A DNA stretch of 24,153 nt from an archaeon. Its GTDB lineage: Archaea > Asgardarchaeota > Thorarchaeia > Thorarchaeales > Thorarchaeaceae. Location: NCBI GenBank assembly GCA_024276825.1, contig JAJRWI010000076.1, positions 1-24,153 of the forward strand. The letters are read 5' to 3'. Below, in pieces: positions 4,192 to 24,153 of the stretch. The notes beneath the pieces were generated by a model that ran no database searches, was not told where the DNA came from, and saw only the letters and a program-made list of their open reading frames with translations. Numbering within the stretch: position 1 is the first letter of the stretch; the number at the start of each line of letters is the position of its first letter. Position numbers and translations under genes: made by a program.

Positions 4192-4752
4192 TTAATCGAT
4201 TGGTTGAATTGAGCCAAGATCAAGGTTTTCAATCAGGCTATGAATCTCAGGACGTCCCATCAATTTCCTGCGGGTTTCGGATAGATTGTTAATCACACAG
4301 GCAATGCCCACAACACTCGCACCCAATTTCTCAAGTGTCTTAAGGACTGCAAGGATAGTGGTTCCTTGGATTAACCAGTCATCGATAATAGCCACTCGAT
4401 CTCCAGGGTCTATTGAGTCTGCGACCAATGCTAGGCGGTTATCGGCAAATCTGCTTGTGGGCATCCATTCTACAGGTCTATGATAGTCCTCTGGAAGATA
4501 GGCAATGGACCTACAAGGGACTATGCCACATCCCAAATAGTAAGCAATTGCACTTCCAAGAGCCAGACCACGCTGCTCGATTCCGATGACCTTATTGGGC
4601 TGCAACTCAACAAGAGGTCTGGCAAGTGTAACAACAGCCTTATGGAAAATATCAGGGTGCTCCAAGAGCCGACTAATATCAAGCATAGCCTCACCAGGCT
4701 TTGGCCAATCGCGAATTACCTCTACGTACTCTCGGAAATCTATGTCTGTCAT
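4192..4752 (-). CDS. Type I phosphoribosyltransferase, adenine phosphoribosyltransferase-like but divergent
   Basis: APRT-like N-terminus IRDWPKPG..LDIS.LL, GIEQRG, and PRPP-binding region GDRVAIIDDWLIQGTT. RBS-like GGGAG upstream. Several canonical APRT residues are altered, so no symbol is given. Confidence 0.8.
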   Translation of the reverse strand: MTDIDFREYVEVIRDWPKPGEAMLDISRLLEHPDIFHKAVVTLARPLVELQPNKVIGIEQRGLALGSAIAYYLGCGIVPCRSIAYLPEDYHRPVEWMPTSRFADNRLALVADSIDPGDRVAIIDDWLIQGTTILAVLKTLEKLGASVVGIACVINNLSETRRKLMGRPEIHSLIENLDLGSIQPID

Positions 4753-4925
4753 TTTGCTCCCTATTCATATCAAAACGAACATAGGATATTTACCTTTCTG
4801 TAACTACATCTGTTCTTGATATTTGACTCGAAACAGTTAAGAAACATATTTGAATAAGTAAAGCTGGCACTAATTGATGCGAGGGTCTTAAACTGATCGT
4901 TCCAGGAACTACTATTGCAGTTAAT

Positions 4926-6248
4926 TTGCTTCCCGGATATATTGAAATCAGAGACAAGGGTACTATTAAGAAGAAAATTCTAACGAAGAACAAGTCATTT
5001 GACGATGTGCTTGCAGAAGTGAAGGCATTTTTCAAAATACAGGGGAAGATACTTCCGCCAACCCTTCTTCATGATGTGCTAATTAAAATTGGCCTGCCAA
5101 AGGTCAAATTGATAATTCAGGATAAAGATATCGAACTTGAGCAGATATCTTCCGTTCGCCCCGAATTGATGGAAGGTCCAACTAAGCCAGCTTCAACATC
5201 AGGGTCCACACGGCCTCCAATGAAAACTGAAACATCAAAACTCGAAACTAACCCTGAAGAATCAACAGATAGAGAGCTCGAGGTTCCTGTAAAGATTGGT
5301 GATGCTGAGGTTGTCGATATTGTTGAAGCTCTAAGCGTTGTCGAGTCCTTAAGTGATTCATTCATGACTCCGCAACAATCGGATAAGGATGAGTCCCCTA
5401 AGAAGGAAGCTCCTCCTATTAAAATTAGTTTACAAGGAGTGGAAGAGATTCAAGCAACAGAGAGCAGTCAAGCCACTGTTATTCCTTCAGAATCCTCATC
5501 TTCTACTGCCGAGACCGAGTCTATAATTGAGCAGGAAACCGAACCAGAGCAAAATGAAGAAACGGAAGAAATTATTCATGAAGTTCAGAGTGAACAGACG
5601 GATACTATGTCTGAAATCCATGTCCCTGTTGCTGAGCCCTCAATTATGACTGGGACCATGCCCATTAAAGAAACAAGTGCTGCAATGGTAAAACCTTTGA
5701 TTGAGAAGAAAGCAATAATTCTTGGCGAAGAAGAAGTTGGAAAGCTAAACCTGATTACAAAGGCCGGCTTCTTACCAATCCTTACTGAGGATCTTTCAAC
5801 TCCTTACATTTATGAAAAGACATTCGAAACTGATACGCATCGTGTCAAGCTTAGAGTGTGGTCATTTGATCAGGCCTCATTGCAGAGTATATCTAGAAGA
5901 GTGTTTTACGCGAATGTTGATGTTGCAATTATTGTCTATTCAGCTGTTGACCGATGGAGCTTTCAAAGCATTGATTTCTGGCTTAAGGAGGCTGGGGCAA
6001 GTTCTGATCATCTTCCCCCACTTGTTATAGTTGCGAATAAGATAGATTTGAGAGACATTGCAGGGCCTCAGGCAGTGACCCACGAAGAAGGATTTGCCTT
6101 GGCTGAGAATCTTGCGAAATCAAGTGGGGTTGAAGACTCACTGCATCCAACTGGTTTCATTGAAACATCATGCACCACTGGTGAAGGTGTTGATGCTCTA
6201 TTTCAACTAGCTGCCGAATTGGCGATGAAGACAACTTGCGATGAATAA
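4926..6248 (+). CDS. Large Ras/Rab-like small-GTPase-domain protein (N-terminal domain, acidic disordered linker, C-terminal G domain with degenerate G1/G3)
   Basis: The C-terminal ~180 aa match the Ras/Rab pattern: AIILGEEEVGKLNL, VKLRVWSFDQ, FYANVDVAIIVYS..DRWSFQSI..WLKE, LVIVANKIDL (G4), VTHEEG..LA, FIETSC.TGEGVDALF (G5). Middle ~190 aa are E/S/T/P-rich. TTG start, position uncertain. Confidence 0.82.
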   Translation: MLPGYIEIRDKGTIKKKILTKNKSFDDVLAEVKAFFKIQGKILPPTLLHDVLIKIGLPKVKLIIQDKDIELEQISSVRPELMEGPTKPASTSGSTRPPMKTETSKLETNPEESTDRELEVPVKIGDAEVVDIVEALSVVESLSDSFMTPQQSDKDESPKKEAPPIKISLQGVEEIQATESSQATVIPSESSSSTAETESIIEQETEPEQNEETEEIIHEVQSEQTDTMSEIHVPVAEPSIMTGTMPIKETSAAMVKPLIEKKAIILGEEEVGKLNLITKAGFLPILTEDLSTPYIYEKTFETDTHRVKLRVWSFDQASLQSISRRVFYANVDVAIIVYSAVDRWSFQSIDFWLKEAGASSDHLPPLVIVANKIDLRDIAGPQAVTHEEGFALAENLAKSSGVEDSLHPTGFIETSCTTGEGVDALFQLAAELAMKTTCDE

Positions 6249-6362
6249 TTATTCCGAACTCAATGAATTTTTATTGTCTTGCGATAATACTCGATAAAGA
6301 TATATTTCACGCTTAAGTGTAATAAATTTGAATATCAGGAATTATTGAAAAAAGGTGATTTA

Positions 6363-6668
6363 TTGGCAATATTTTGCGAGTCTTGTGGAAAGGAGGTCGA
6401 ACCCCCTGAGTCAGCTAAGACTCTGGAGAAGAGTTTTGCCAATGATGAGAGGATGCAGCGCAGCCTATGCATTGAATGTTTTTCGAAGCGCTTTAAAGTA
6501 ACCTCCAGAAAGAGTTCAGGCTATGGCGGCACAATTTACAAGCTTGAGCCCAAGCCTGCGCCACGATTTGGACTTGGAAGCAAGACATTTTCTTGTCTAA
6601 AATGTGAATGGGTGGCATGGACTGAAGAAGGCCTTGCAGCCCACATGAAACAAAAACACTCTACTTGA
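6363..6668 (+). CDS. Small zinc-finger protein (N-terminal C4 site plus C-terminal C2H2 finger)
   Basis: TTG 6363 follows RBS AAGGTGA. CESC...CIEC pair, and FSCLKCEWVAWTEEGLAAHMKQKH = F-x-C-x2-C-x12-H-x4-H. Confidence 0.8.
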   Translation: MAIFCESCGKEVEPPESAKTLEKSFANDERMQRSLCIECFSKRFKVTSRKSSGYGGTIYKLEPKPAPRFGLGSKTFSCLKCEWVAWTEEGLAAHMKQKHST

Positions 6669-7320
6669 ATTGAAAACTTGCATCCTTTACAATCTCATAT
6701 CCTTCTAGTCTTAAACCCTTGATCTTTGACACAGCATTTTCAAGCATGCCCATCCGATAAGCTGCAGTCCTTGGACCTAGACCATGAAGCCAAGTTAATG
6801 ATACAAGATCCAATCGCTCATGGTTCATGAAATACTCTTTCAAGTCTGAAGCAATTGCATTGGTTCTCTCATACATGGCCAGAGTGAGTCCGGCACTGGG
6901 AATAAGAAATGCAATAAGAATCCAGATTGGAATAAAGGGATCATTAGCAAAGTAGTCGTAGAACAGAATGAATCCTGATATCATCGGTTGCATTAATGCC
7001 AATACAGTCAAAATCAGAGCAACATGCTGAGATGCGTGATCACTGCCAAGTCCCGCTATTCCGATAACATCTTGAGCTGGTGGAAATAGATAGACTAGAA
7101 CGCCCCCTGAAGTTATTCCTACAATCATGGATGAGAATAGAATATAGAGAGTGAATGCGAATGGATGAACTGACCAGATGCTGGGGAAGCTGATTAATGA
7201 CTGCATGACCAGCAGCACACAGAGGAGTGATGCCCCCACTGTAAAGCCTTTCCAGCAAAAATCCTCATGTGGTTGAATCATGTCGCTGATCAATCGTCTG
7301 CCCTTCCTTCGCAACATCAT
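6661..7320 (-). CDS. Uncharacterised 4-TM membrane protein with a soluble C-terminal tail containing an HhH-like motif
   Basis: 219-aa ORF with four hydrophobic segments and a polar C-terminal ~70 aa containing LTWLHGLGPRTA. The true start may be 27-40 nt downstream of 7320, after GAAGGAAGGG. Stop overlaps the zinc-finger gene end by 8 nt. Confidence 0.72.
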   Translation of the reverse strand: MMLRRKGRRLISDMIQPHEDFCWKGFTVGASLLCVLLVMQSLISFPSIWSVHPFAFTLYILFSSMIVGITSGGVLVYLFPPAQDVIGIAGLGSDHASQHVALILTVLALMQPMISGFILFYDYFANDPFIPIWILIAFLIPSAGLTLAMYERTNAIASDLKEYFMNHERLDLVSLTWLHGLGPRTAAYRMGMLENAVSKIKGLRLEGYEIVKDASFQFK

Positions 7321-7499: not shown

Positions 7500-8198
7500 T
7501 TGAACACTGAATTCATTGTTGACGTAGATTCTGCAACAAAGATCTATTCAATGGGGACCGTTAAAGTTCATGCGCTCCGTGGCGTTTCTCTTAAAGTTAG
7601 GAAGGGCGAGGCAATCGGAATCATGGGCCCTTCTGGATCAGGAAAGACCACTTTGCTAAACATTATTGGTGCACTCGACAAGCCAACAAGCGGGAATGTG
7701 ATAATTGATGGCATTGACATAACTGAGATGCCTGAAAAAGAACTGACTGGAGTCCGAAGAGAAAAGATATCATTCGTCTTTCAGTTTTTCAACCTCCTTC
7801 CGGTTCTTACTGCATGGGAGAATGTTGAGCTTCCTTTGCTTATTGCTGGTGTGCCAGAGGATGAACGTAGAGAGCGAGTGGATCATCTGCTTCAACTGGT
7901 GGGTCTAGCTGAAAGGGCTGAACATCGGCCTGATGAGTTGAGCGGTGGCGAGCAGCAGAGAGTTGCTATTGCTAGAGCTCTTGCCAAGCCCCATGGATCT
8001 ACAGGATCCATAATTGTTCTTGCCGATGAACCGACAGGAGACCTTGACAGTACAACTGGTGAGGAAGTAATGAGAGTTCTAATAGACCTCACCAAAGGAG
8101 AAGGTGGCACATTATTAGTTGTCACTCATGACCCCGAAGTTGGAGAGAAAATGGACAAGGTCTATCGTATGGAAGACGGAATGATATTCGAACCATAA
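7500..8198 (+). CDS. ABC transporter ATP-binding protein, LolD/MacB family
   Basis: Walker A GPSGSGKTT, Q-loop FVFQFFNL, signature LSGGEQQRVAIARAL, Walker B/D-loop LADEPTGDLD, H-loop VTHD. TTG start after GGAGCGGG. Confidence 0.95.
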   Translation: MNTEFIVDVDSATKIYSMGTVKVHALRGVSLKVRKGEAIGIMGPSGSGKTTLLNIIGALDKPTSGNVIIDGIDITEMPEKELTGVRREKISFVFQFFNLLPVLTAWENVELPLLIAGVPEDERRERVDHLLQLVGLAERAEHRPDELSGGEQQRVAIARALAKPHGSTGSIIVLADEPTGDLDSTTGEEVMRVLIDLTKGEGGTLLVVTHDPEVGEKMDKVYRMEDGMIFEP

Positions 8199-8211
8199 TG
8201 AGGTGTAAGGA

Positions 8212-10980
8212 TTGTCCATCACTCCTGCAGGCTACGAAGCTTTTCACAGCAAGCGAAGAAGATCAATCACATTCCTCTGCTTTCTAATTTCAATCAGCCT
8301 GATCTCGGGACTACTCATCTATATCGATTCCTATTCCATACATAAATGGAATGAATTCACTGACATAGGTCCAGTTGCATTCTATGTGTCTGGTACAGGT
8401 GCATACCCCACATTTAGGCAGAATGTGAGAAATGTTCAAGGAGTCACTCATACTTGTGATGTGCCTATTGCATATGCTCATTTCAATAGATCGGACATTG
8501 AGTACGGGAATTATTATTCAGGCTACATCTTTGCTCCATCAGATGATGGCTTTGATTATTTTGCCTCGATTTACAAGTTCACCATGGGAAGATTCCCAAA
8601 GAATAACAGTGAGATTGCAGTTTCTTCCAGTCTAATCGATTACTTGAATCTCACTATAGGCGATACTGTTGAATTCGAAATCTCAGGTTTTACTGTAGAG
8701 CACCGCAAAATGACGATTGTAGGGATTTATGATATCAACACTGAAAGTAATGATGCCTACTCGCCAGTTGACTTTGAGTATCTTTATGGTGTTGCTCTGG
8801 TTAACAACTCATATGTTGATATTCGCTTCTCAGAATTTCGTATCTTTATTGATGTCGATAGATCATTCATTTCACCATCTTCTCCACAGAGCTCAATAGA
8901 CTACTTGAAGAGAATAAAACAAGACATCCAAGAATTGGACCCATTCTATTCGCCGAACTATTCTAGCACACAAATATATGTACAAACATTTCTCCTTGAC
9001 CAGATTTACTCGTTCATATATTGGAAGGACGCAACAAGCTCTTCTGAACTCTGGCGTTCTTCAGGAGTTTTGCTTCTAGCGGGTCTACTAATATTCTTGG
9101 CAGTAAGATATAATATGAATGATCGAAAATACGAGTCGCAGATGCTAATTTCAAGAGGGGCATCACTGGGAACGATCAATGGAATTGCCAACCGTGAATT
9201 CTTTGCTCTTTCAATTGCCGCGACTATTCTCTCATTTCTTGTGGGGTCCATATTTAGTAGAATTGCCATTGCTTCAACTGGTTTCTTAGAACTAGATCTT
9301 GAGATGATGATCACAGAACCACTCCTAATCTCAATTTCGACCCTCTATTATATCCCTATTATTGGGATAGTAATGACTATGATAATTGCATTGTTTCACC
9401 ACTCATTCTTCTCTGTGATAACCCCAAAGGAACGCAGAAGAGGAACCCTTTCAAAACTCACATGGTTTTTGCGACTCATAAAATGGGATGTCCTAGTCCT
9501 CATCCTTAGCATTGTATTAATCTGGTTTATTCTCTCTGCAGGACCCATCAGTTATACATACCCAATCCTTTCACTTGCTTTGAACTTGGCTCCATTAACA
9601 CTTTTTCTCTCAATGGCTTCATTATCAATAAAATTTCTGAGAAAGACTGCTGAGCTCATGTCAAAGCATTTGACCCGTTTCTTCGGAGCGGTACAATCAA
9701 GAGTAGGCATTCGCAGAATTGGCAAGAGTGCATCTTCTGCTGGCCCAGTTATCGTAGTACTTGTTCTATCCATAAGTACAGCATGGACATTCTCGGTAGT
9801 GAATTCCTCACTTCCCATAACAAAACTGAATCATGCGCGCTTCAGCCTTGGCGGTGATGTATCTCTTCAAATAGTTTCGGATAACTCATCAATGGATCAA
9901 ATGCTGCTAGAGAATCTCACATCGCATCCCCTAATTGAAGCTGCCACCATAGTGCAGATTCAGCAGATGCAGCTATCAACCTCAAGCTACACTGGATATG
10001 ATTTTGCGGCAATTGATCCAGTGCGATTTGCAAATGTTTCATATGATTTTCGGGGAAGACAACTTAACTCAACATCAGTTAATGACATATTAAAAGAACT
10101 TGCCATAAACCCAAGTGGTGCCATAATTACAGAGTCGATAGCTAGAGAATATGATCTTGCTAAGGGCGATATCTTGCGAAGTTTTGCAGATATAGATGGT
10201 ACACAGATAGCTGTTTCATTCAATATAATTGATATCGAATATGCACTTACCAACTGTAGAGCTCTATCCTCAGTCTTCGACTTCAGTCCATGGTATTATT
10301 ATGACAAAATAATTGGCACAGATGTTATTTGGGTGAACGGGCAGTATTTGCTAGAGCAGCTGAATCAGACTGAATTGGAGTTCAGAGTCCTTGTTTCAAG
10401 GGCAAAGGCCAATGCAAACAGTACAAGGATTGTAGAAGACTTTCTAAATTCAGGTGCTTGGCAATTCATAAACACGGATGAATTGAACTCCGTGGACAAT
10501 GAACTATCGCGCTATGTGAACAGTGTTGATTTCAGAATCAGTCGATCTGTTGACAGTATGTTGATGTTTGGAACAATACTGATCACTGCTGCTTCTTTCT
10601 TGGTCTATGCGACAGAGGGTGTATATTCAAGGCGGAGAGAGATAGCACTAATGCGGTCTCAAGGGGCAGACAGAATGATCATAATCAAGACTCAGATTGC
10701 TGAACTCTCAGTGATTTTGATACTTAGCACTGTATTTCTTCTGATCTATGGCCCTCTACTCTTTACCATTGCAATTAATATGACGCGAGTCACATTCTAT
10801 CAGTTTCCAATTCCAATATTTGTGGTCTATCCCATTCTCTCCATGATTGAGATATATCTGATTTTCGTAGTATCAATTCTCTTGTTTATTGTACTGATTT
10901 CAATTTGGAGTTCACGAATTAATTTGGCTGAATCTTTGAATGCTAATTGGGCCGAAGCCAGCCCATTTGGGGGTGAATGA
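8212..10980 (+). CDS. ABC transporter permease, FtsX/MacB-like with two large extracytoplasmic domains
   Basis: 922 aa. N-terminal TM, large soluble domain with GRFPKNNSEIAVS (MacB periplasmic-type motif), two TM blocks with DRKYESQMLISRGAS and RRREIALMRSQGA (FtsX motif). TTG start after GAGGTG. Confidence 0.88.
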   Translation: MSITPAGYEAFHSKRRRSITFLCFLISISLISGLLIYIDSYSIHKWNEFTDIGPVAFYVSGTGAYPTFRQNVRNVQGVTHTCDVPIAYAHFNRSDIEYGNYYSGYIFAPSDDGFDYFASIYKFTMGRFPKNNSEIAVSSSLIDYLNLTIGDTVEFEISGFTVEHRKMTIVGIYDINTESNDAYSPVDFEYLYGVALVNNSYVDIRFSEFRIFIDVDRSFISPSSPQSSIDYLKRIKQDIQELDPFYSPNYSSTQIYVQTFLLDQIYSFIYWKDATSSSELWRSSGVLLLAGLLIFLAVRYNMNDRKYESQMLISRGASLGTINGIANREFFALSIAATILSFLVGSIFSRIAIASTGFLELDLEMMITEPLLISISTLYYIPIIGIVMTMIIALFHHSFFSVITPKERRRGTLSKLTWFLRLIKWDVLVLILSIVLIWFILSAGPISYTYPILSLALNLAPLTLFLSMASLSIKFLRKTAELMSKHLTRFFGAVQSRVGIRRIGKSASSAGPVIVVLVLSISTAWTFSVVNSSLPITKLNHARFSLGGDVSLQIVSDNSSMDQMLLENLTSHPLIEAATIVQIQQMQLSTSSYTGYDFAAIDPVRFANVSYDFRGRQLNSTSVNDILKELAINPSGAIITESIAREYDLAKGDILRSFADIDGTQIAVSFNIIDIEYALTNCRALSSVFDFSPWYYYDKIIGTDVIWVNGQYLLEQLNQTELEFRVLVSRAKANANSTRIVEDFLNSGAWQFINTDELNSVDNELSRYVNSVDFRISRSVDSMLMFGTILITAASFLVYATEGVYSRRREIALMRSQGADRMIIIKTQIAELSVILILSTVFLLIYGPLLFTIAINMTRVTFYQFPIPIFVVYPILSMIEIYLIFVVSILLFIVLISIWSSRINLAESLNANWAEASPFGGE

Positions 10981-13817
10981 AAATGTTCACACTTTCGAGA
11001 CTAGCCTCACGCGCCCCTCATGTCCTTGCAACATTCTTAGTGTTCTCTCTGGCTTCTGGTGTGCTTGGAGGCATTCTGTTCTATATGGACAGTGTTAGTC
11101 CTCAGGTATATCACGAGTTCACAATGAAGACTAGTGTTGACATGCAAGTCGGTTTCATGAATTCTTTTTTCTCGCAAAATGAGACCACGCTTGAAGATAT
11201 AGTAAATGTTCTTGAAAGTTATGAAGAAGTCAATTTTACAAACACAGTTTTGAAGTTATCATTTTGGGAAGATGATGTTGATTTTATCTACAGGAACGCA
11301 GTCAGTCTCGGTGTCAATGAATCAGTTTTTGAGAATTTTCCAAATGCTTTTCAGATTAACTCAAATGTTTCAAAGCTGACTGACAATACTTGCTATCTAG
11401 AAACCAGCTTCATGGAAAGGTATAATCTTGCAATTGGTGATAACTACACATTAACCACCTATTTGAGGAAGGCCAATGGCAATTATCTTGAATATTCAAA
11501 AACTTACACCATAGTTGGATCCTTCACAACAACTCTATTCCCAGCATTTGAGTACTATTACTATGAAACTGCTACTGGCACTAGTAGATTACGCTTCATC
11601 ACAACTATTGGTGGAATTCTTGATACCTTTGGAAATGTAACGTATAATGATTATGAGGGGCTTGGCTATCGAGTCTTTGTAAAGCTCAACCACGACTTGC
11701 TTATATCTGAAGAGCCTTTTACCGCATATGACAACCTTGTAGCACTGAGAAAGAAGTTCGAGCAAGCAACACTTCCCTATGCTTTCGTTTCAACCAATGA
11801 TTATCTACTTCTCAAGGCTGTAAGTCAATACATGCTCTGGTCAATTATAATCAGGCTGGTGGGCATTACATTTTCAGTGCCAACACTTCTAATGGGCATA
11901 CTACTTGTATATTATAATAACAAACTTCTCGAGTCGCAGCAACGTCGCGATATTGGTACATTAAAGACCCGGGGTGCAACAGGTTGGCAGGCATTCAAAT
12001 GGGTAATGACTACTGCCATCATTGTGAGCATTTTGGGTTGTACTGGTGCAATTCTAATGGGAGTGGTTTCATCTCTTATGTCTGCTTCTGCAGCGCTATT
12101 CCTTGTTTTTGATCTATCATTGCTCTCCGAGTTCAGGCTGCTTTTATCAAGCCCTGCAATTATAAGTGTGATAGGGTTCTCATTTGTGATGGGCATTATT
12201 ATCTCGTTGCCATCAGCCATCAAGGCATTGATCATGACGCCTGCAGAAGCGCATGCGGAGATTGAGGAGGGCATTCTCAAAGGTGAAGAGACCCTTGGAA
12301 ATGTTGGCTATGATGTCATAGGTCTCGTCATTACTATTTACCTGATCATCCCAGTAATAATGATTGGATACATTGGATTTTCATACGAAGGTTTGCTGTC
12401 CTATATGATCGTGTTCACACCCTTCATGATAATCTTTGTACTCTCATTCACAAGACTGTTCTCTAGACAGGTGTCTTCATTCAAGTCGAGGGCCCATAAG
12501 ATATTTGAACGGACTTCATTCATCGTTGGCGCCCGGCTCTTGTCTAGAACAGCAAGAATGTTCAAGAAGAGTGAGTCGATTGGAGTGATATTCATATCAC
12601 TCGTGTTTGCTACTGGCGTTTTCTCATCAATTTCTGCAACCACTGGATACATGCACTCCTACGACCTCTATATGTTCAACTCTGGTGCTGACATCATTAT
12701 TGAGTTTAAGCAAGACTCTTTTGCCACTCTCGATTGGATTGACAACATCACAGCCATTAATGGTGTCGCTGATGCAACAGGTGTGCTGAGAATTGAGGGC
12801 CATAGAAACGAATTAACGCAATATAACCAATACAGCGGCCGGCGAAATATCACATCTAGGACCATGATCTATGGTGTTGATCCCGCCGCATGGAAGCGAA
12901 TAGGCTTCTGGCTTCCATACTTCACATATCATGGTGACCCATGGACCGCACTGGACAGCCTTGCTAGCTCAAACCATACTGTACTTACAAACAGAAAACC
13001 AATTGATTACTGGAACTTTCTGCCCAATGGCATGGCGATTCCTGTCTATCATGATGACCTGACTGTTGTTATGAAAAAGCAAGACGAAACCGAAGTGAGA
13101 AATCCCTGCACAATAGTTGATGTCTTGGCCAGTGATGATAGTGGACAGAAGACCTATTTTCCCGGCCAGCCGGATGTTAATGAATTCATTGTGATTAATT
13201 TGTCTTGGGTCCATGATGTTCTAAATACCACGGCCATTAATATGGTCTATATCGATCTTGCCGACAATGCTGACTATGACTATGTCCTAAGTGAGATAGA
13301 ACAACTGGGATTAGAGAATTTTATGAGGGTCAGTTGCGGGCTCAAAGATTTTGATGAGAGCAATGAGTCGAAGGCCAGTCGATCCATATATGGCATCTAC
13401 ACGATGGACATGTTATTCTCCCTGATTTATCTGATCGCTGGCATGGCAATAATTACTCTTATCCGTACACACAATATGTCAAAGCAATTGTCAGTCCTGC
13501 GCGCACTTGGTTCTAAAACCACTTCGTTACTTGTTCCACTTCTCATTGATGTCTTACTCAGTCTGGCCTATGCATTATTCATTGGCTTTCTATTAGGATC
13601 GGTGATCACGCTGATAATTGTCAATATGCCAATAGTGTTCATGGCGAATGTTTCTAGGACAATGTGGTTCAGGCTGCCCATGGTAGTTCAGGTTCCAATT
13701 GGACTACTGATCAGTCTAATTGGACTGGCCATTGCATCATCATTGTTCAGTTCGTTTCTTATCATCAGGAAACAGTTGCGCAAGAACATTGCAGATGATA
13801 TCAAATATATGGAGTGA
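10977..13817 (+). CDS. ABC transporter permease, FtsX/MacB-like (second, paralogous subunit)
   Basis: 946 aa with the same architecture. QRRDIGTLKTRGAT, GADII and KQLSVLRALGS motifs. ATGA overlap with the preceding permease. Confidence 0.88.
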   Translation: MKMFTLSRLASRAPHVLATFLVFSLASGVLGGILFYMDSVSPQVYHEFTMKTSVDMQVGFMNSFFSQNETTLEDIVNVLESYEEVNFTNTVLKLSFWEDDVDFIYRNAVSLGVNESVFENFPNAFQINSNVSKLTDNTCYLETSFMERYNLAIGDNYTLTTYLRKANGNYLEYSKTYTIVGSFTTTLFPAFEYYYYETATGTSRLRFITTIGGILDTFGNVTYNDYEGLGYRVFVKLNHDLLISEEPFTAYDNLVALRKKFEQATLPYAFVSTNDYLLLKAVSQYMLWSIIIRLVGITFSVPTLLMGILLVYYNNKLLESQQRRDIGTLKTRGATGWQAFKWVMTTAIIVSILGCTGAILMGVVSSLMSASAALFLVFDLSLLSEFRLLLSSPAIISVIGFSFVMGIIISLPSAIKALIMTPAEAHAEIEEGILKGEETLGNVGYDVIGLVITIYLIIPVIMIGYIGFSYEGLLSYMIVFTPFMIIFVLSFTRLFSRQVSSFKSRAHKIFERTSFIVGARLLSRTARMFKKSESIGVIFISLVFATGVFSSISATTGYMHSYDLYMFNSGADIIIEFKQDSFATLDWIDNITAINGVADATGVLRIEGHRNELTQYNQYSGRRNITSRTMIYGVDPAAWKRIGFWLPYFTYHGDPWTALDSLASSNHTVLTNRKPIDYWNFLPNGMAIPVYHDDLTVVMKKQDETEVRNPCTIVDVLASDDSGQKTYFPGQPDVNEFIVINLSWVHDVLNTTAINMVYIDLADNADYDYVLSEIEQLGLENFMRVSCGLKDFDESNESKASRSIYGIYTMDMLFSLIYLIAGMAIITLIRTHNMSKQLSVLRALGSKTTSLLVPLLIDVLLSLAYALFIGFLLGSVITLIIVNMPIVFMANVSRTMWFRLPMVVQVPIGLLISLIGLAIASSLFSSFLIIRKQLRKNIADDIKYME

Positions 13818-13822
13818 GTCAA

Positions 13823-14719
13823 ATGATTGAGGATCTTGAGGAGATTGCAAAAGAGTACAAGGTTATTGTCCGAGACCTGATGAAGGTCTATCGAAGAGGA
13901 CAGAAAGAAGTTATTGCATTAAGAGGAATGGACTTTGAAGTACGTCCCGGCGAGTTTCTTTCTATTGTTGGACCAAGTGGCTCAGGCAAGACAACTCTAC
14001 TAAAATTGATTGGGGCCCTTGACAGGCCAACGGGGGGTTCTGTACTCATAGACGGCTTTAATATTACACTACTTGACGACCGCAAGGCCATGATGTATCG
14101 TAGACTTAAGTGCGGCTTTGTATGGCAGATGGGCAATTTAGTTCCAGGCCTGACAGCCCTTGAGAATGTCAAGCTTCCCATGAAACTGGCCGGTGCTCGC
14201 AAGAAACCGACTGAGTTGCGTGCAAAGGCATTGCTTGAGAACATGGGTCTCGGTGACAGAATGAATCACAAACCCCATCAATTGAGTGGCGGTGAGAACC
14301 AAAGAGTTGCAATATGTGTTGCTCTTGCAAACAATCCTGAGCTTTTGCTTGCTGATGAGATAACTGGTGAGTTGGACTCGGAAACCACTGCCATGGTCAT
14401 GGATGAGCTGAGACGGATTAACAAGGAATTTGGAACTACTGTTATCAATGTGACTCATAATCCTAAAGTGGCCGAATACGCGGATCGTGTCCTAAGGATT
14501 CGCGATGGTCTCATCGAGGGTCAGAAACATACACTCTATGGAGATATCTCTGAGGTTGATGCGAAGGGACGAATAGTTATTCCTGAAACAATCAGACGTC
14601 TTGCAGGGATCGAAAAGCGTGTTGTATTGAAGGTCACTGATGAAGGTCTTCTAATCAGTCCTCTCAAGGATGAGAGTGAGTCGGGTTCACAAAAACAACA
14701 ACATAAGGAGCCTGACTAG
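13823..14719 (+). CDS. ABC transporter ATP-binding protein (LolD/MacB family) with a C-terminal AbrB/MraZ-like domain
   Basis: GPSGSGKTT, LSGGENQRVAI, LLADEITGELD, VTHN, followed by SEVDAKGRIVIPETIRRLAGIEKRVVLKVTDEGLLISPL. Start is ATG 13823 after GGAGTGA, or GTG 13814. Confidence 0.92.
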   Translation: MIEDLEEIAKEYKVIVRDLMKVYRRGQKEVIALRGMDFEVRPGEFLSIVGPSGSGKTTLLKLIGALDRPTGGSVLIDGFNITLLDDRKAMMYRRLKCGFVWQMGNLVPGLTALENVKLPMKLAGARKKPTELRAKALLENMGLGDRMNHKPHQLSGGENQRVAICVALANNPELLLADEITGELDSETTAMVMDELRRINKEFGTTVINVTHNPKVAEYADRVLRIRDGLIEGQKHTLYGDISEVDAKGRIVIPETIRRLAGIEKRVVLKVTDEGLLISPLKDESESGSQKQQHKEPD

Positions 14720-21292: not shown

Positions 21293-23176
21293 TCATTGAC
21301 TGTCTAAGTTCTGCAAATCTATAAAATGTTTGATTACATCTTCCGAGTTATCTGCATCGATAAAAATCGGAACTGAATCAAGACCTGTTGCAATATAACT
21401 GGAAAGAAGCCATGAGCCTGGCGGAAACTCCAAAGTTTTATCGAGTATGCTGAGGTCAATCTGAAATGAACTGCTAACTACGGTTCTGTCGTATGGTCTT
21501 GGAAGTGTTCCTATAAAGAATGTATGAAGTTGTTGAAGCACATTTGTATTAAGATAAGCGATTCTCTGGGTAGCTATTGCTCCGCCAAGGCCATATTTTC
21601 TGCCCTGCCTTAGAAGTCGTTCAATAGCTTTACTACATCTCTCAGTTGTGCCACTCGCTCTTGATGGAATGAACTCTTGAGCCTCATCAAAGACAAACAG
21701 TATCTGGGGCTTAATTTCAAACTTCTTTTTTCGATACTTCAGTGCAGCACCAGTAAGACGAATAATAAGGTCTCTAAGCGTGTCAGGTTCGGACATGGAT
21801 ATACAGATTAATCTCTCTGGGCCACTCAGCATGTTTAGTATATCTTTAATTGTGCACCCTACCTGCTTTGCATCCCTTGCTCGTTTCAGTGCCCCAATCA
21901 GAGTACCACGAGTATTTGCCCATCCATAGATTGAGGCCCCTTTGTAGACAGAGAACTTTTCCATGGCTTCTGTAGCAACTCTGGCCAATTCATTTATGAA
22001 CTCCTCATCTAATGTGTGCTCTGGTTTCTTGCCATTTTGATCCATCCAATCCATCACAAAATACAGAATCTCCTCCATAGCTTGGATATAGGTTGGCCTA
22101 TCGGTCGAAATTCCTGCTAGTTGATCATTAATCTCTTGGATTACACCATCATAAGTTGGAGTCCTTGTAAGTGGCTGGTTGTAGAAGGTTACTATGTCCA
22201 AATCATAGATCTTCCTTAGGATTTCAGAAGCAGTTGGTTCATCCTCAAAATCTCTTGGCTTGACAATGGACCTTGCAAACTCTTCTGCATTAGTGGCCTC
22301 CTCCTCAAGGATGATTTTACTTGAAATCTTTGGATCAACGAACACATCGGACAATAGAAATGGGTATTCGGAGCTGATATCAAAAATAACGATCTTTGTG
22401 TCCTCTGTGTGATATAGAATTCGTCTAAACAGATTTGAGAGTAGGTTGCTCTTTCCGCCTCCCGTGAATGAGAAAACACCAAAGTGATAACGAACTAATT
22501 TGTATAGGTCAACATAAACTGGAATCTTCTTTTTGCTCTCCATAAACATTCGCAATGTGCCAACCCGTGGGTCTTTCCTTGGATCTGGCGATGTGAACTT
22601 TCTTGTGAACCCAATAGCCTCCTTGATTGAAGCATTATAGATTCTGTCTATTGTGTCAATATTGATGATGTGGACCTTATCGCCAACCAGTGGGTATGAG
22701 AATCCCTTTTTGAACTCGAGCTCACCCTCTGCATCAACAACCAAATCGTAGTTTATTGGAATCGCAGACATCTGAATCATCATTGTTGCACTGTCATTTG
22801 TGGCCCAGTCAGGGACTACTTGTTCTATGATCTCCATCTGAAATGGATAATAATGACTATCGCTGATCCCTCCGAGACCATAGTGCTGAGGCCATACCTT
22901 GCTAACAACCATTACAGTGAATCTCTGGATGCCATCTTCTTCAGCACGCCTTGATTGTCCCCTGAAATTTCTCACTGCAATCATCATGCCTTCTTCGAGA
23001 ACAGCCATCAGCTCTTTGTGGTATTTCACCTTGATTCTACAGTCATACCTCGCTGCAGAGCCTGCCCATTCTGATGTGTAATTTGCAGCAACTGGAACAA
23101 CTCTTGCAAGCACACCCTCAAATATGCCATCAAAATCAGTGAAGTATTTTTCAGCCAAATTTTCTTGTTCGCTCAA
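21293..23176 (-). CDS. HerA/FtsK-superfamily ATPase (HerA-like helicase/translocase, DUF87 type)
   Basis: Beta-rich N-terminal (HAS-barrel-like) region, HFGVFSFTGGGKSN (Walker A), IVIFDISSEY, Walker B ILFVFDEAQEF, arginine finger LRQGRKYGLG, ATQR. TTG 23176 follows GGAGGT. Confidence 0.9.
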   Translation of the reverse strand: MSEQENLAEKYFTDFDGIFEGVLARVVPVAANYTSEWAGSAARYDCRIKVKYHKELMAVLEEGMMIAVRNFRGQSRRAEEDGIQRFTVMVVSKVWPQHYGLGGISDSHYYPFQMEIIEQVVPDWATNDSATMMIQMSAIPINYDLVVDAEGELEFKKGFSYPLVGDKVHIINIDTIDRIYNASIKEAIGFTRKFTSPDPRKDPRVGTLRMFMESKKKIPVYVDLYKLVRYHFGVFSFTGGGKSNLLSNLFRRILYHTEDTKIVIFDISSEYPFLLSDVFVDPKISSKIILEEEATNAEEFARSIVKPRDFEDEPTASEILRKIYDLDIVTFYNQPLTRTPTYDGVIQEINDQLAGISTDRPTYIQAMEEILYFVMDWMDQNGKKPEHTLDEEFINELARVATEAMEKFSVYKGASIYGWANTRGTLIGALKRARDAKQVGCTIKDILNMLSGPERLICISMSEPDTLRDLIIRLTGAALKYRKKKFEIKPQILFVFDEAQEFIPSRASGTTERCSKAIERLLRQGRKYGLGGAIATQRIAYLNTNVLQQLHTFFIGTLPRPYDRTVVSSSFQIDLSILDKTLEFPPGSWLLSSYIATGLDSVPIFIDADNSEDVIKHFIDLQNLDSQ

Positions 23177-24153
23177 CTTCAGACCTCCTCTCACGAAATG
23201 TGCTTAGGTAAAACAGAAACTCTCTTAGCTCAGGATTACTTGTTAGCCATGATCCAGTACTCTCCACCATTGCTTTAAACTGTTTATAGTAGTATTTGGC
23301 AATTTTGTCTGCAAGGAACAGTGGCTTGATGTGACCAAACAACTCTGGGATGTTGTTGCTAGTAAATGCCTTCATAAGGTTCAACACAAAGGCCTGCATT
23401 GGGTTTGGCGTGTTTAGATAAATGATCAGTTCAAGAGGATCGCACTGATTTACATCATTGTAGTAATCGTGTTCCATAGATATTGTATGGCCACCATCAA
23501 GGTCGACCTCTGGAAACACAAGTCGATCATAGAGTAATACATTGCTCCTGAGTTTCTTATCGGAATGTGCCTGACAGAGCTGAAAGTAACTCTTTACAAA
23601 TGTCTTTTCTAGCGAGATCTGATTCCTTCTAGCTCCTGAGACCTTTCCCTTAACTCCACCAAAATGGGGCACTACAGTCTTGAATGCGGTATCATATTCT
23701 ATTGTTGCCCATGGAACTTCCAGACACAGGCGCTCCTTAAGCGAGACCCATTGTAGAATCATCCTGTCAGTGTCTGGAATGTCTTTAAGATGTTCTAGAT
23801 TCACATTCAGTGCGCCCACATGATTGAGGACTGGAATCAATTGCCGCTTGAGGTCTCGTGCTGATGAGTCCTTTGCTACTCCGATCAACAACGTTTTATT
23901 CTGCCACGCTTTATTCATGGCCAAGTACAGCGATACTAAGCTTAGAAATGAGATATCAGTAGTTGTGATCCAACGGTTTCCAACCTTATATCGTTCTTCG
24001 AATGTTATTGTGTCATCTTCTGCAAAAATCCTCTCGCAGACCTCAGTAACCAACCTTTCCATTCGACCAAAGATGTTCCTAAACTTGGGGTTAAGAACAT
24101 AATAGTCCTTCTTCCTTATCAGAATATTATCATGATCAGCAGATTTCTTAATC
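23151..24153 (-). CDS. NurA-like nuclease (5'-partial, continues beyond the window)
   Basis: The frame stays open from 24062 to the window edge. LLIGVAKDSSARDL and PELFGHIKPLFLADKIAK resemble the NurA GxxKxS and GYPxPLxxAD/H motifs. Overlaps the herA-like start by 26 nt. Confidence 0.75.
   Translation of the reverse strand, partial: IKKSADHDNILIRKKDYYVLNPKFRNIFGRMERLVTEVCERIFAEDDTITFEERYKVGNRWITTTDISFLSLVSLYLAMNKAWQNKTLLIGVAKDSSARDLKRQLIPVLNHVGALNVNLEHLKDIPDTDRMILQWVSLKERLCLEVPWATIEYDTAFKTVVPHFGGVKGKVSGARRNQISLEKTFVKSYFQLCQAHSDKKLRSNVLLYDRLVFPEVDLDGGHTISMEHDYYNDVNQCDPLELIIYLNTPNPMQAFVLNLMKAFTSNNIPELFGHIKPLFLADKIAKYYYKQFKAMVESTGSWLTSNPELREFLFYLSTFRERRSEVERTRKFG

Follow-up and report, generated by a model that had tools for sequence, protein, structure and literature searches.

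In the window analysed here, by which we mean the whole 24,153-nucleotide stretch of the thorarchaeal contig, we found a gene for a Ras/Rab-like protein that is probably a non-cycling pseudoGTPase adaptor, derived from a canonical RasL/Rab-like GTPase in an ancestor of the Thorarchaeia. The protein combines a G fold with a conserved loss of catalytic G motifs, which is the sequence definition of a pseudoGTPase, and its family is nearly universal in the class (taken to be Thorarchaeia because of the names of the homologues: almost every one with a label is called Candidatus Thorarchaeota, and a few carry a submitter's label of another Asgard group). An earlier note, made from the letters alone, had read the gene as a pseudoGTPase; that reading is supported here, and it is strengthened by a paralogue without the P-loop Lys and by a conserved non-catalytic surface patch. 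The scaffold or adaptor role that the note attached to it is what we infer from the sequences.

The Ras-like open reading frame given by that note, 4926-6248 (+), is present as annotated, with its motifs where they had been read; the source genome measures 2.9 Mb and is 98% complete. We place the true start, probably, at CTG 4893, 11 codons upstream of 4926, because across 34 loci this codon is variously ATG, CTG or TTG and the residues encoded by the 11 codons are conserved; an in-frame stop lies just 5' of the alternating codon at some of these loci. The product would then have 451 aa, and all residue numbers here count from CTG 4893 (Table 1). A non-ATG start (CTG or TTG) occurs in more than half of the 34 loci, and gene finders often mis-call it.

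Table 1. Features of the pseudoGTPase gene and its syntenic neighbours (positions in the window)
Feature	Positions	Strand	Basis
Whole gene, 451 aa (probable start)	4893..6248	+	start-codon alternation in 34 loci, homologue N-termini
Basic head domain, beta3-alpha2, residues 1-70	4893..5102	+	pLDDT >90 in two models, conservation 0.73
Linker 1, acidic, disordered, length-variable	5127..5297	+	pLDDT <50
Conserved acidic helix, residues 141-158	5313..5366	+	conservation 0.81; homologous helix in subfamily B
Second conserved island, residues 176-190, G182 invariant	5418..5462	+	conservation 0.67
Linker 2, acidic, disordered	5475..5669	+	conservation 0.28
Third conserved island, residues 261-268, immediately N-terminal of G domain	5673..5696	+	conservation 0.76
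Ras-like (RasL/Rab-like) pseudoGTPase domain, residues 269-447	5697..6233	+	Pfam, phmmer, Foldseek, wide structure search
G1, GEEEVGKL; Mg-binding S17 site = residue 285, free	5724..5750	+	alignment
Replaced G3 (WSFDQ), residues 323-328	5859..5876	+	ungapped register, DSSP
Alpha3 patch, residues 353-366	5949..5990	+	family-specific invariant W355, S359, F362
G4 NKxD (NKID here), intact	6036..6047	+	120-cluster alignment
G5 (ETSC here), Ser kept	6162..6173	+	120-cluster alignment
APRT-like phosphoribosyltransferase, divergent, syntenic	4192..4752	-	candidate link only
C4 plus C2H2 zinc-finger protein, syntenic	6345..6668	+	candidate link only
Membrane protein without Pfam match, syntenic	6661..7320	-	candidate link only

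The Rab-like scaffold claimed earlier is borne out: Pfam Ras matches the last 170 residues (E=4e-16; 59 bits against a cut-off of 21.6), the only Pfam families matched by the protein are Ras, Roc, Arf, EF-Tu and RsgA, and the predicted model is a Ras/Rab/Rho-type G domain. The top Foldseek match of this domain is Thor-Rab (E 2e-14; 25% identity), and in a wide structure search Rho, Ras, Gem and Rab were tied at Z 20-21.5 (RhoA: Z 21.5, rmsd 2.4, 154 aligned; Gem: Z 20.6, rmsd 2.5, 159 aligned), with LIC, CENP-M and AAGAB absent among the 50 structural matches listed. No COR domain, as in Roco (Roc-COR) proteins, is present, the protein ending about 12-17 residues past the last helix core, and the layout is not that of Arf or ArfR: the acidic helix lies 110 residues from the G domain, and the WDxGGQ G3 is replaced. 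The C-terminal tail (10-22 residues) lacks the conserved prenylation cysteines that eukaryotic Rab proteins carry on a hypervariable end, and we rejected a C-terminal Cys as a prenylation site because it is not conserved across the family.

Within this fold the guanine-recognition motifs persist, as the note had said, and the motifs for Mg2+ and the gamma-phosphate do not. Among 120 clusters at 90% identity (subfamily A), NKxD is nearly invariant (N in 120, K in 119, D in 120), the G5 Ser is kept in 118/120, and G278, E279, V282, G283 and K284 are invariant. The S17 site (residue 285) is free family-wide (Glu 42, Arg 23, Gly 15, Ser 11, Gln 9, His 9, Ala 5, Leu 3, Lys 3, Thr 0), so that the alteration of G1 stands, but the Leu that replaces the Ser or Thr of GK[ST] in the studied protein is lineage-specific (3/120); the acidic P-loop is likewise peculiar to this lineage and not a family trait, Gly occupying that site in 110/120. 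The 11 clusters that retain Ser are spread over several clades, and one sequence, P0021, has GKSS together with Asp57. Switch I (38-44 residues from Lys to Trp) has no conserved Thr, in keeping with the missing G2 Thr of the note, whereas 14 aligned canonical paralogues have T35 in 14/14 (S/T at the S17 site 14/14, D57 14/14, G60 13/14, Q61 13/14).

G3 is replaced: D57 has become Ser (97%), T58 Phe, A59 Asp, G60 a variable residue (Gly is absent) and Q61 Ala (100%), and the W, F, D and A of W-x-F-D-x-A are invariant. In the WSFDQ of the note, the Gln after WSFD is lineage-specific. The register is ungapped: the downstream aromatic follows after 15 residues in every group, canonical paralogues included, and this equal spacing ruled out a one-residue deletion in G3 suggested by a phmmer alignment. 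In the AlphaFold model switch II begins as a helix at F325 (DSSP), and its Arg, R335 (Ras R68), is invariant.

An intact GKT/DxxG pattern in the orthologues, which would have told against the note's reading, is not what the alignment shows, and the family forms one clade with a long stem (support 100/99) beside the canonical RasL proteins of the source genome. The G domain is under purifying selection, with dN/dS of 0.03-0.09 in five unsaturated orthologue pairs, which overlap, are non-independent and leave out the studied gene itself; the linkers reach about 0.2-0.35, and the invariant residues are encoded by differing synonymous codons. For comparison, GK[ST] is kept by all but one of the other Ras-like matches in the source genome (26 of 27), and the 27th is a broken gene. 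The same genome holds two Ras-like genes with in-frame stops (C76:30518-31027 and C52:11926-12408), probable true pseudogenes, and a canonical Rab-like domain inside a 787-aa open frame (C73:78511-78999).

A divergent locus (L035) led to a paralogous subfamily B of 120 further clusters, in which Val or Ile replaces the P-loop Lys in 120/120, Asn or Lys stands at the S17 site and G3 reads WTFx, with NKxD and G5 kept. Subfamily B is nested within the family clade, and the tree indicates that the P-loop Lys was lost twice. At L035, a very large secreted-type repeat protein (L035:2-5176 (-)) and a leucine-rich-repeat gene lie upstream of the subfamily B member. Wherever residue 284 is Lys or Arg (140 aligned sequences), residue 326 is Asp or Glu; of the 120 sequences without Lys or Arg at 284 none has Asp at 326 and 41 have Glu; the exception is the unaligned sequence L053, which has Lys with Arg. 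This pairing, based on two independent Lys losses only, weakly suggests that a K284-D326 pair occupies the Mg site.

What outlasts the Lys is a surface. W355, S359 and F362 on alpha3 are present in 100% of subfamilies A and B and in ≤20% of the 14 canonical paralogues, where alpha3 carries polar residues. F325 and P419 likewise occur at or close to 100% in A and B and at ≤20% in the canonical paralogues. We take the three alpha3 residues to correspond to Ras positions 88, 92 and 95, which lie on the exposed surface flanking the P-loop and switch II. The invariant alpha3 aromatics, persisting through the loss of the Lys, argue better than any other feature for a putative binding role.

The N-terminal arm was modelled by AlphaFold as a confident beta3-alpha2 head (1-70) and a helix at 143-158 (pLDDT about 80) between disordered linkers. 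The earlier description of a ~190-aa acidic linker holds for its charge (42 D/E vs 13 K/R), but the region contains three conserved islands, and in column conservation the helix is the highest segment of all (0.81, against 0.67 and 0.76 in the other islands, 0.73 in the head and 0.28-0.37 in the linkers). The helix had been called isolated and amphipathic; it is predicted and highly conserved, with A146, L147, E151, D155 and F157 invariant and a net charge of -4, but its hydrophobic moment is moderate (0.27). We regard this acidic helix as a probable partner-binding motif. Its distance from the head is 60-140 aa in subfamily A and about 12 aa in subfamily B, and we found no support for a role of the helix in completing the head fold: the pTM of 0.59 for a compact paralogue fits a confident head alone, and structural matches cover 1-70 and 75-122 separately.

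The head appears to be a unit of its own, because it also occurs in proteins of about 150 aa that join head and helix to an acidic, aromatic tail and lack a G domain (L045:1083-1628, L046:3356-3871, L059:1-414) and as a standalone 77-aa homologue (hhalign 96.8%; L047:2883-3116 (-) and L048:2848-3081 (+)), whose gene sits between those for a universal stress protein and glycyl-tRNA synthetase in a few genomes and is missing at the corresponding locus of the source genome. Neither the standalone head nor subfamily B had a match in the source genome. At one further locus (L050:1657-3483 (-)) the head opens a 548-aa frame whose far end encodes an ABC-2-like membrane region in place of a G domain, a putative fusion or frameshift. 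The head had no Pfam family, no PDB sequence match and no Foldseek match under E 0.001; its best structural match was a designed protein (Z 6.2, rmsd 2.2, 59 aligned), and atlas searches returned weak rows only, DUF5996 being the commonest. For a PB1/DCX beta-grasp or SAP-like head we found no support, and the failure to match does not amount to a new fold. The head was found in 78/87 Thorarchaeia genomes and 24/24 good ones (22/24 with a frame of 400+ aa), in 0/209 genomes of other Asgard families at the sensitivity used, and in just 46 of 1.84 billion representative sequences.

We reasoned that a non-cycling adaptor would work as follows. Without S17, T35, D57, G60 and Q61, and judging by Ras-family chemistry, the G domain would neither hold Mg, sense the gamma-phosphate nor hydrolyse GTP, and it would keep to a single conformation in which switch II is stiffened into a helix. 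Less firmly, the invariant D326 might pair with K284 and fill the Mg/gamma-phosphate site, and, by analogy, GDP or another guanine nucleotide might bind weakly, without Mg, as a stabiliser. The G domain would dock one partner via the alpha3 patch, the head and helix would bind another, and the linkers would serve as the tether. Subfamily A would best fit class ii of the published scheme (PMC5593906), and subfamily B may be drifting to class i.

That the whole family might already belong in class i, as a purely structural scaffold that binds no nucleotide and keeps NKxD and G5 for folding, strikes us as unlikely. The G4 Lys, whose main role is to stack on the base, is present in all complete B sequences as well as in 119/120 of A, and the alpha-phosphate site is Ser, Thr or Cys in 115/120 of A and 120/120 of B, although subfamily B thrives without the P-loop Lys, the guanine-stacking aromatic (Ras F28 equivalent) is aliphatic in most members, and the studied protein has Glu at the G13 site, then Asn. 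Known class i members have displaced G4/G5 (PMC12490416); on the other side, fungal LIC binds nothing though its G4/G5 loops are in place (PMC4359372).

Improbable, too, is an atypical active switch of class iii, RGK-like, with D326 replacing D57 as Mg ligand and a partner giving catalytic residues in trans. It would account for the invariance of K284 and D326 in subfamily A and of R335 in switch II, and Gem is among the closest folds, yet the Mg-ligand site tolerates Gly, Leu, Glu and (in 26/120 clusters) Arg or Lys, and switch I differs in length between members and shows no conserved Thr. RGK proteins (Gem, Rad, Rem) keep GKS and the G3 Asp, and neither GKS in G1 nor Asp as the first residue of G3 is conserved in the family. 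They resemble the family in an altered G2 and G3, in an aromatic and an acidic residue following the beta3 strand and in their close fold, and they diverge at several G motifs yet hydrolyse GTP (class iii, PMC5593906); because RGK proteins with odd G motifs can remain catalytic, we leave this alternative a small share.

The genes for an APRT-like protein, a zinc-finger protein and a membrane protein flank the pseudoGTPase gene in most loci, and the four could possibly form a functional module. A low-affinity guanine-nucleotide sensor in such a module, signalling the purine status to an output that binds DNA or RNA, would fit the adjacency, the presence of the zinc finger in 39/41 class genomes, the basic head and the joint absence of all four genes from one 97% complete genome (G025); we consider it more doubtful still, since at least ten unrelated genes share the synteny, the four genes are missing together in a single case that may be an assembly gap, the zinc-finger gene has its own conserved upstream box, and subfamily B and the deepest member occur without these neighbours. 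All three neighbours were also not found in genome G001, which retains a Lys-less member.

Several observations concern these genes in their own right. The APRT-like protein falls below all NCBIfam cut-offs, has an altered PRPP loop and shows 76% median identity across loci, and it is possibly a pseudoenzyme or a regulator. The zinc-finger gene probably starts about 9 codons later, and its upstream box is AT-rich, with GGTGAT in relatives; the membrane protein has a conserved soluble C-terminal motif. Syntenic 3' of the gene in most loci is a block that encodes an ABC ATPase, a pair of large permeases and another ATPase, this one extended slightly at its C-terminus (7500-14719 (+)), and the contig end holds a HerA-like ATPase and NurA-like gene pair (21293-24153 (-)).

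Gene decay or sequencing error, to which only the extra G1 departures of the studied copy might point, we exclude for practical purposes, because frames are open across the class, the losses and their replacements are conserved, dN/dS stays below 0.1 and the other Ras-like loci keep GK[ST]. The non-cycling adaptor, the nucleotide-free scaffold and the sensor would have in common that they do not switch, because Mg coordination, gamma-phosphate sensing and hydrolysis would all be missing, and this shared conclusion we hold to be very likely.

The nearest characterised relative is the Asgard RasL/Thor-Rab (PDB 7EZB, 7EZE), which is the sister group in the tree, shares the core, G4, G5 and the want of a C-terminal Cys motif, and binds GDP/Mg and hydrolyses GTP (PMC10933270); unlike it, the Thorarchaeia family lacks S17, T35 and DxxGQ and has an extra 270-aa N-terminal module. 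The closest working parallel would be the dynein LIC, from which we borrowed the idea of GDP as a stabiliser. Metazoan LIC1 likewise has a Ras fold without DxxG, a kept P-loop Lys and G4, a conserved aromatic patch and a disordered arm, which carries an amphipathic adaptor-binding helix; the LIC arm is C-terminal, whereas that of the Thorarchaeia family is N-terminal, and we know of no dynein motor in archaea. Human LIC, which also lacks DxxG, has a preference for GDP, and its partner docks on an aromatic patch that lies on beta2/beta3/alpha2 and not on alpha3 as here (PMC4359372). We see no sign of shared descent with LIC. Class i proteins (CENP-M, p190RhoGAP pG1/pG2, AAGAB, the last a precedent for a pseudoGTPase; PMC12490416) also use a non-catalytic Ras fold as an interaction module, but have lost nucleotide binding and the G4/G5 geometry, the motifs that are conserved in the Thorarchaeia family.

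Among Asgard proteins, Rup3 is another class-restricted novel Ras-superfamily group, though it is confined to Heimdallarchaeia, and insertions within its G domain define it; the survey of 2,922 Asgard Ras-superfamily sequences that reported it named only ArfR and Rup3 and left unannotated groups 'yet to be investigated' (bioRxiv 10.1101/2024.02.28.582541). Our literature search, whose coverage lay outside most subscription journals, returned no paper joining Asgard with pseudoGTPase or pseudoenzyme, and the family is undescribed in the literature so searched. The note's word 'parallel' for its relation to eukaryotic pseudoGTPases is apt: because the family is class-restricted, ancestry to any of them is not indicated, and this restriction limits its bearing on eukaryote ancestry.

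Nearly all known pseudoGTPase scaffolds belong to eukaryotic machines, namely the kinetochore, dynein and AP-complex assembly. If our reading is true, the duplication of a Ras-type switch and its conversion into a static adaptor happened also in the archaeal relatives of eukaryotes, and a GTPase network complex enough to need scaffolds would be possible without a eukaryotic cell. A bolder and rather doubtful extension, drawn by analogy, is that these proteins are self-plugged, GDP-stabilised adaptors linking a cytoskeletal or membrane-trafficking component to cargo, LIC-like and of independent origin in Thorarchaeia, and that living paralogues still show how the enzyme died, the Mg site going first and the P-loop Lys second. 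If the main reading holds, counts of Asgard 'Rab' proteins include non-switches, members being labelled 'Rab family GTPase' in databases. Small, apparently soluble and graded (some members with the Lys, others without it), the family would allow the order in which Mg, phosphate and base binding were lost to be measured.
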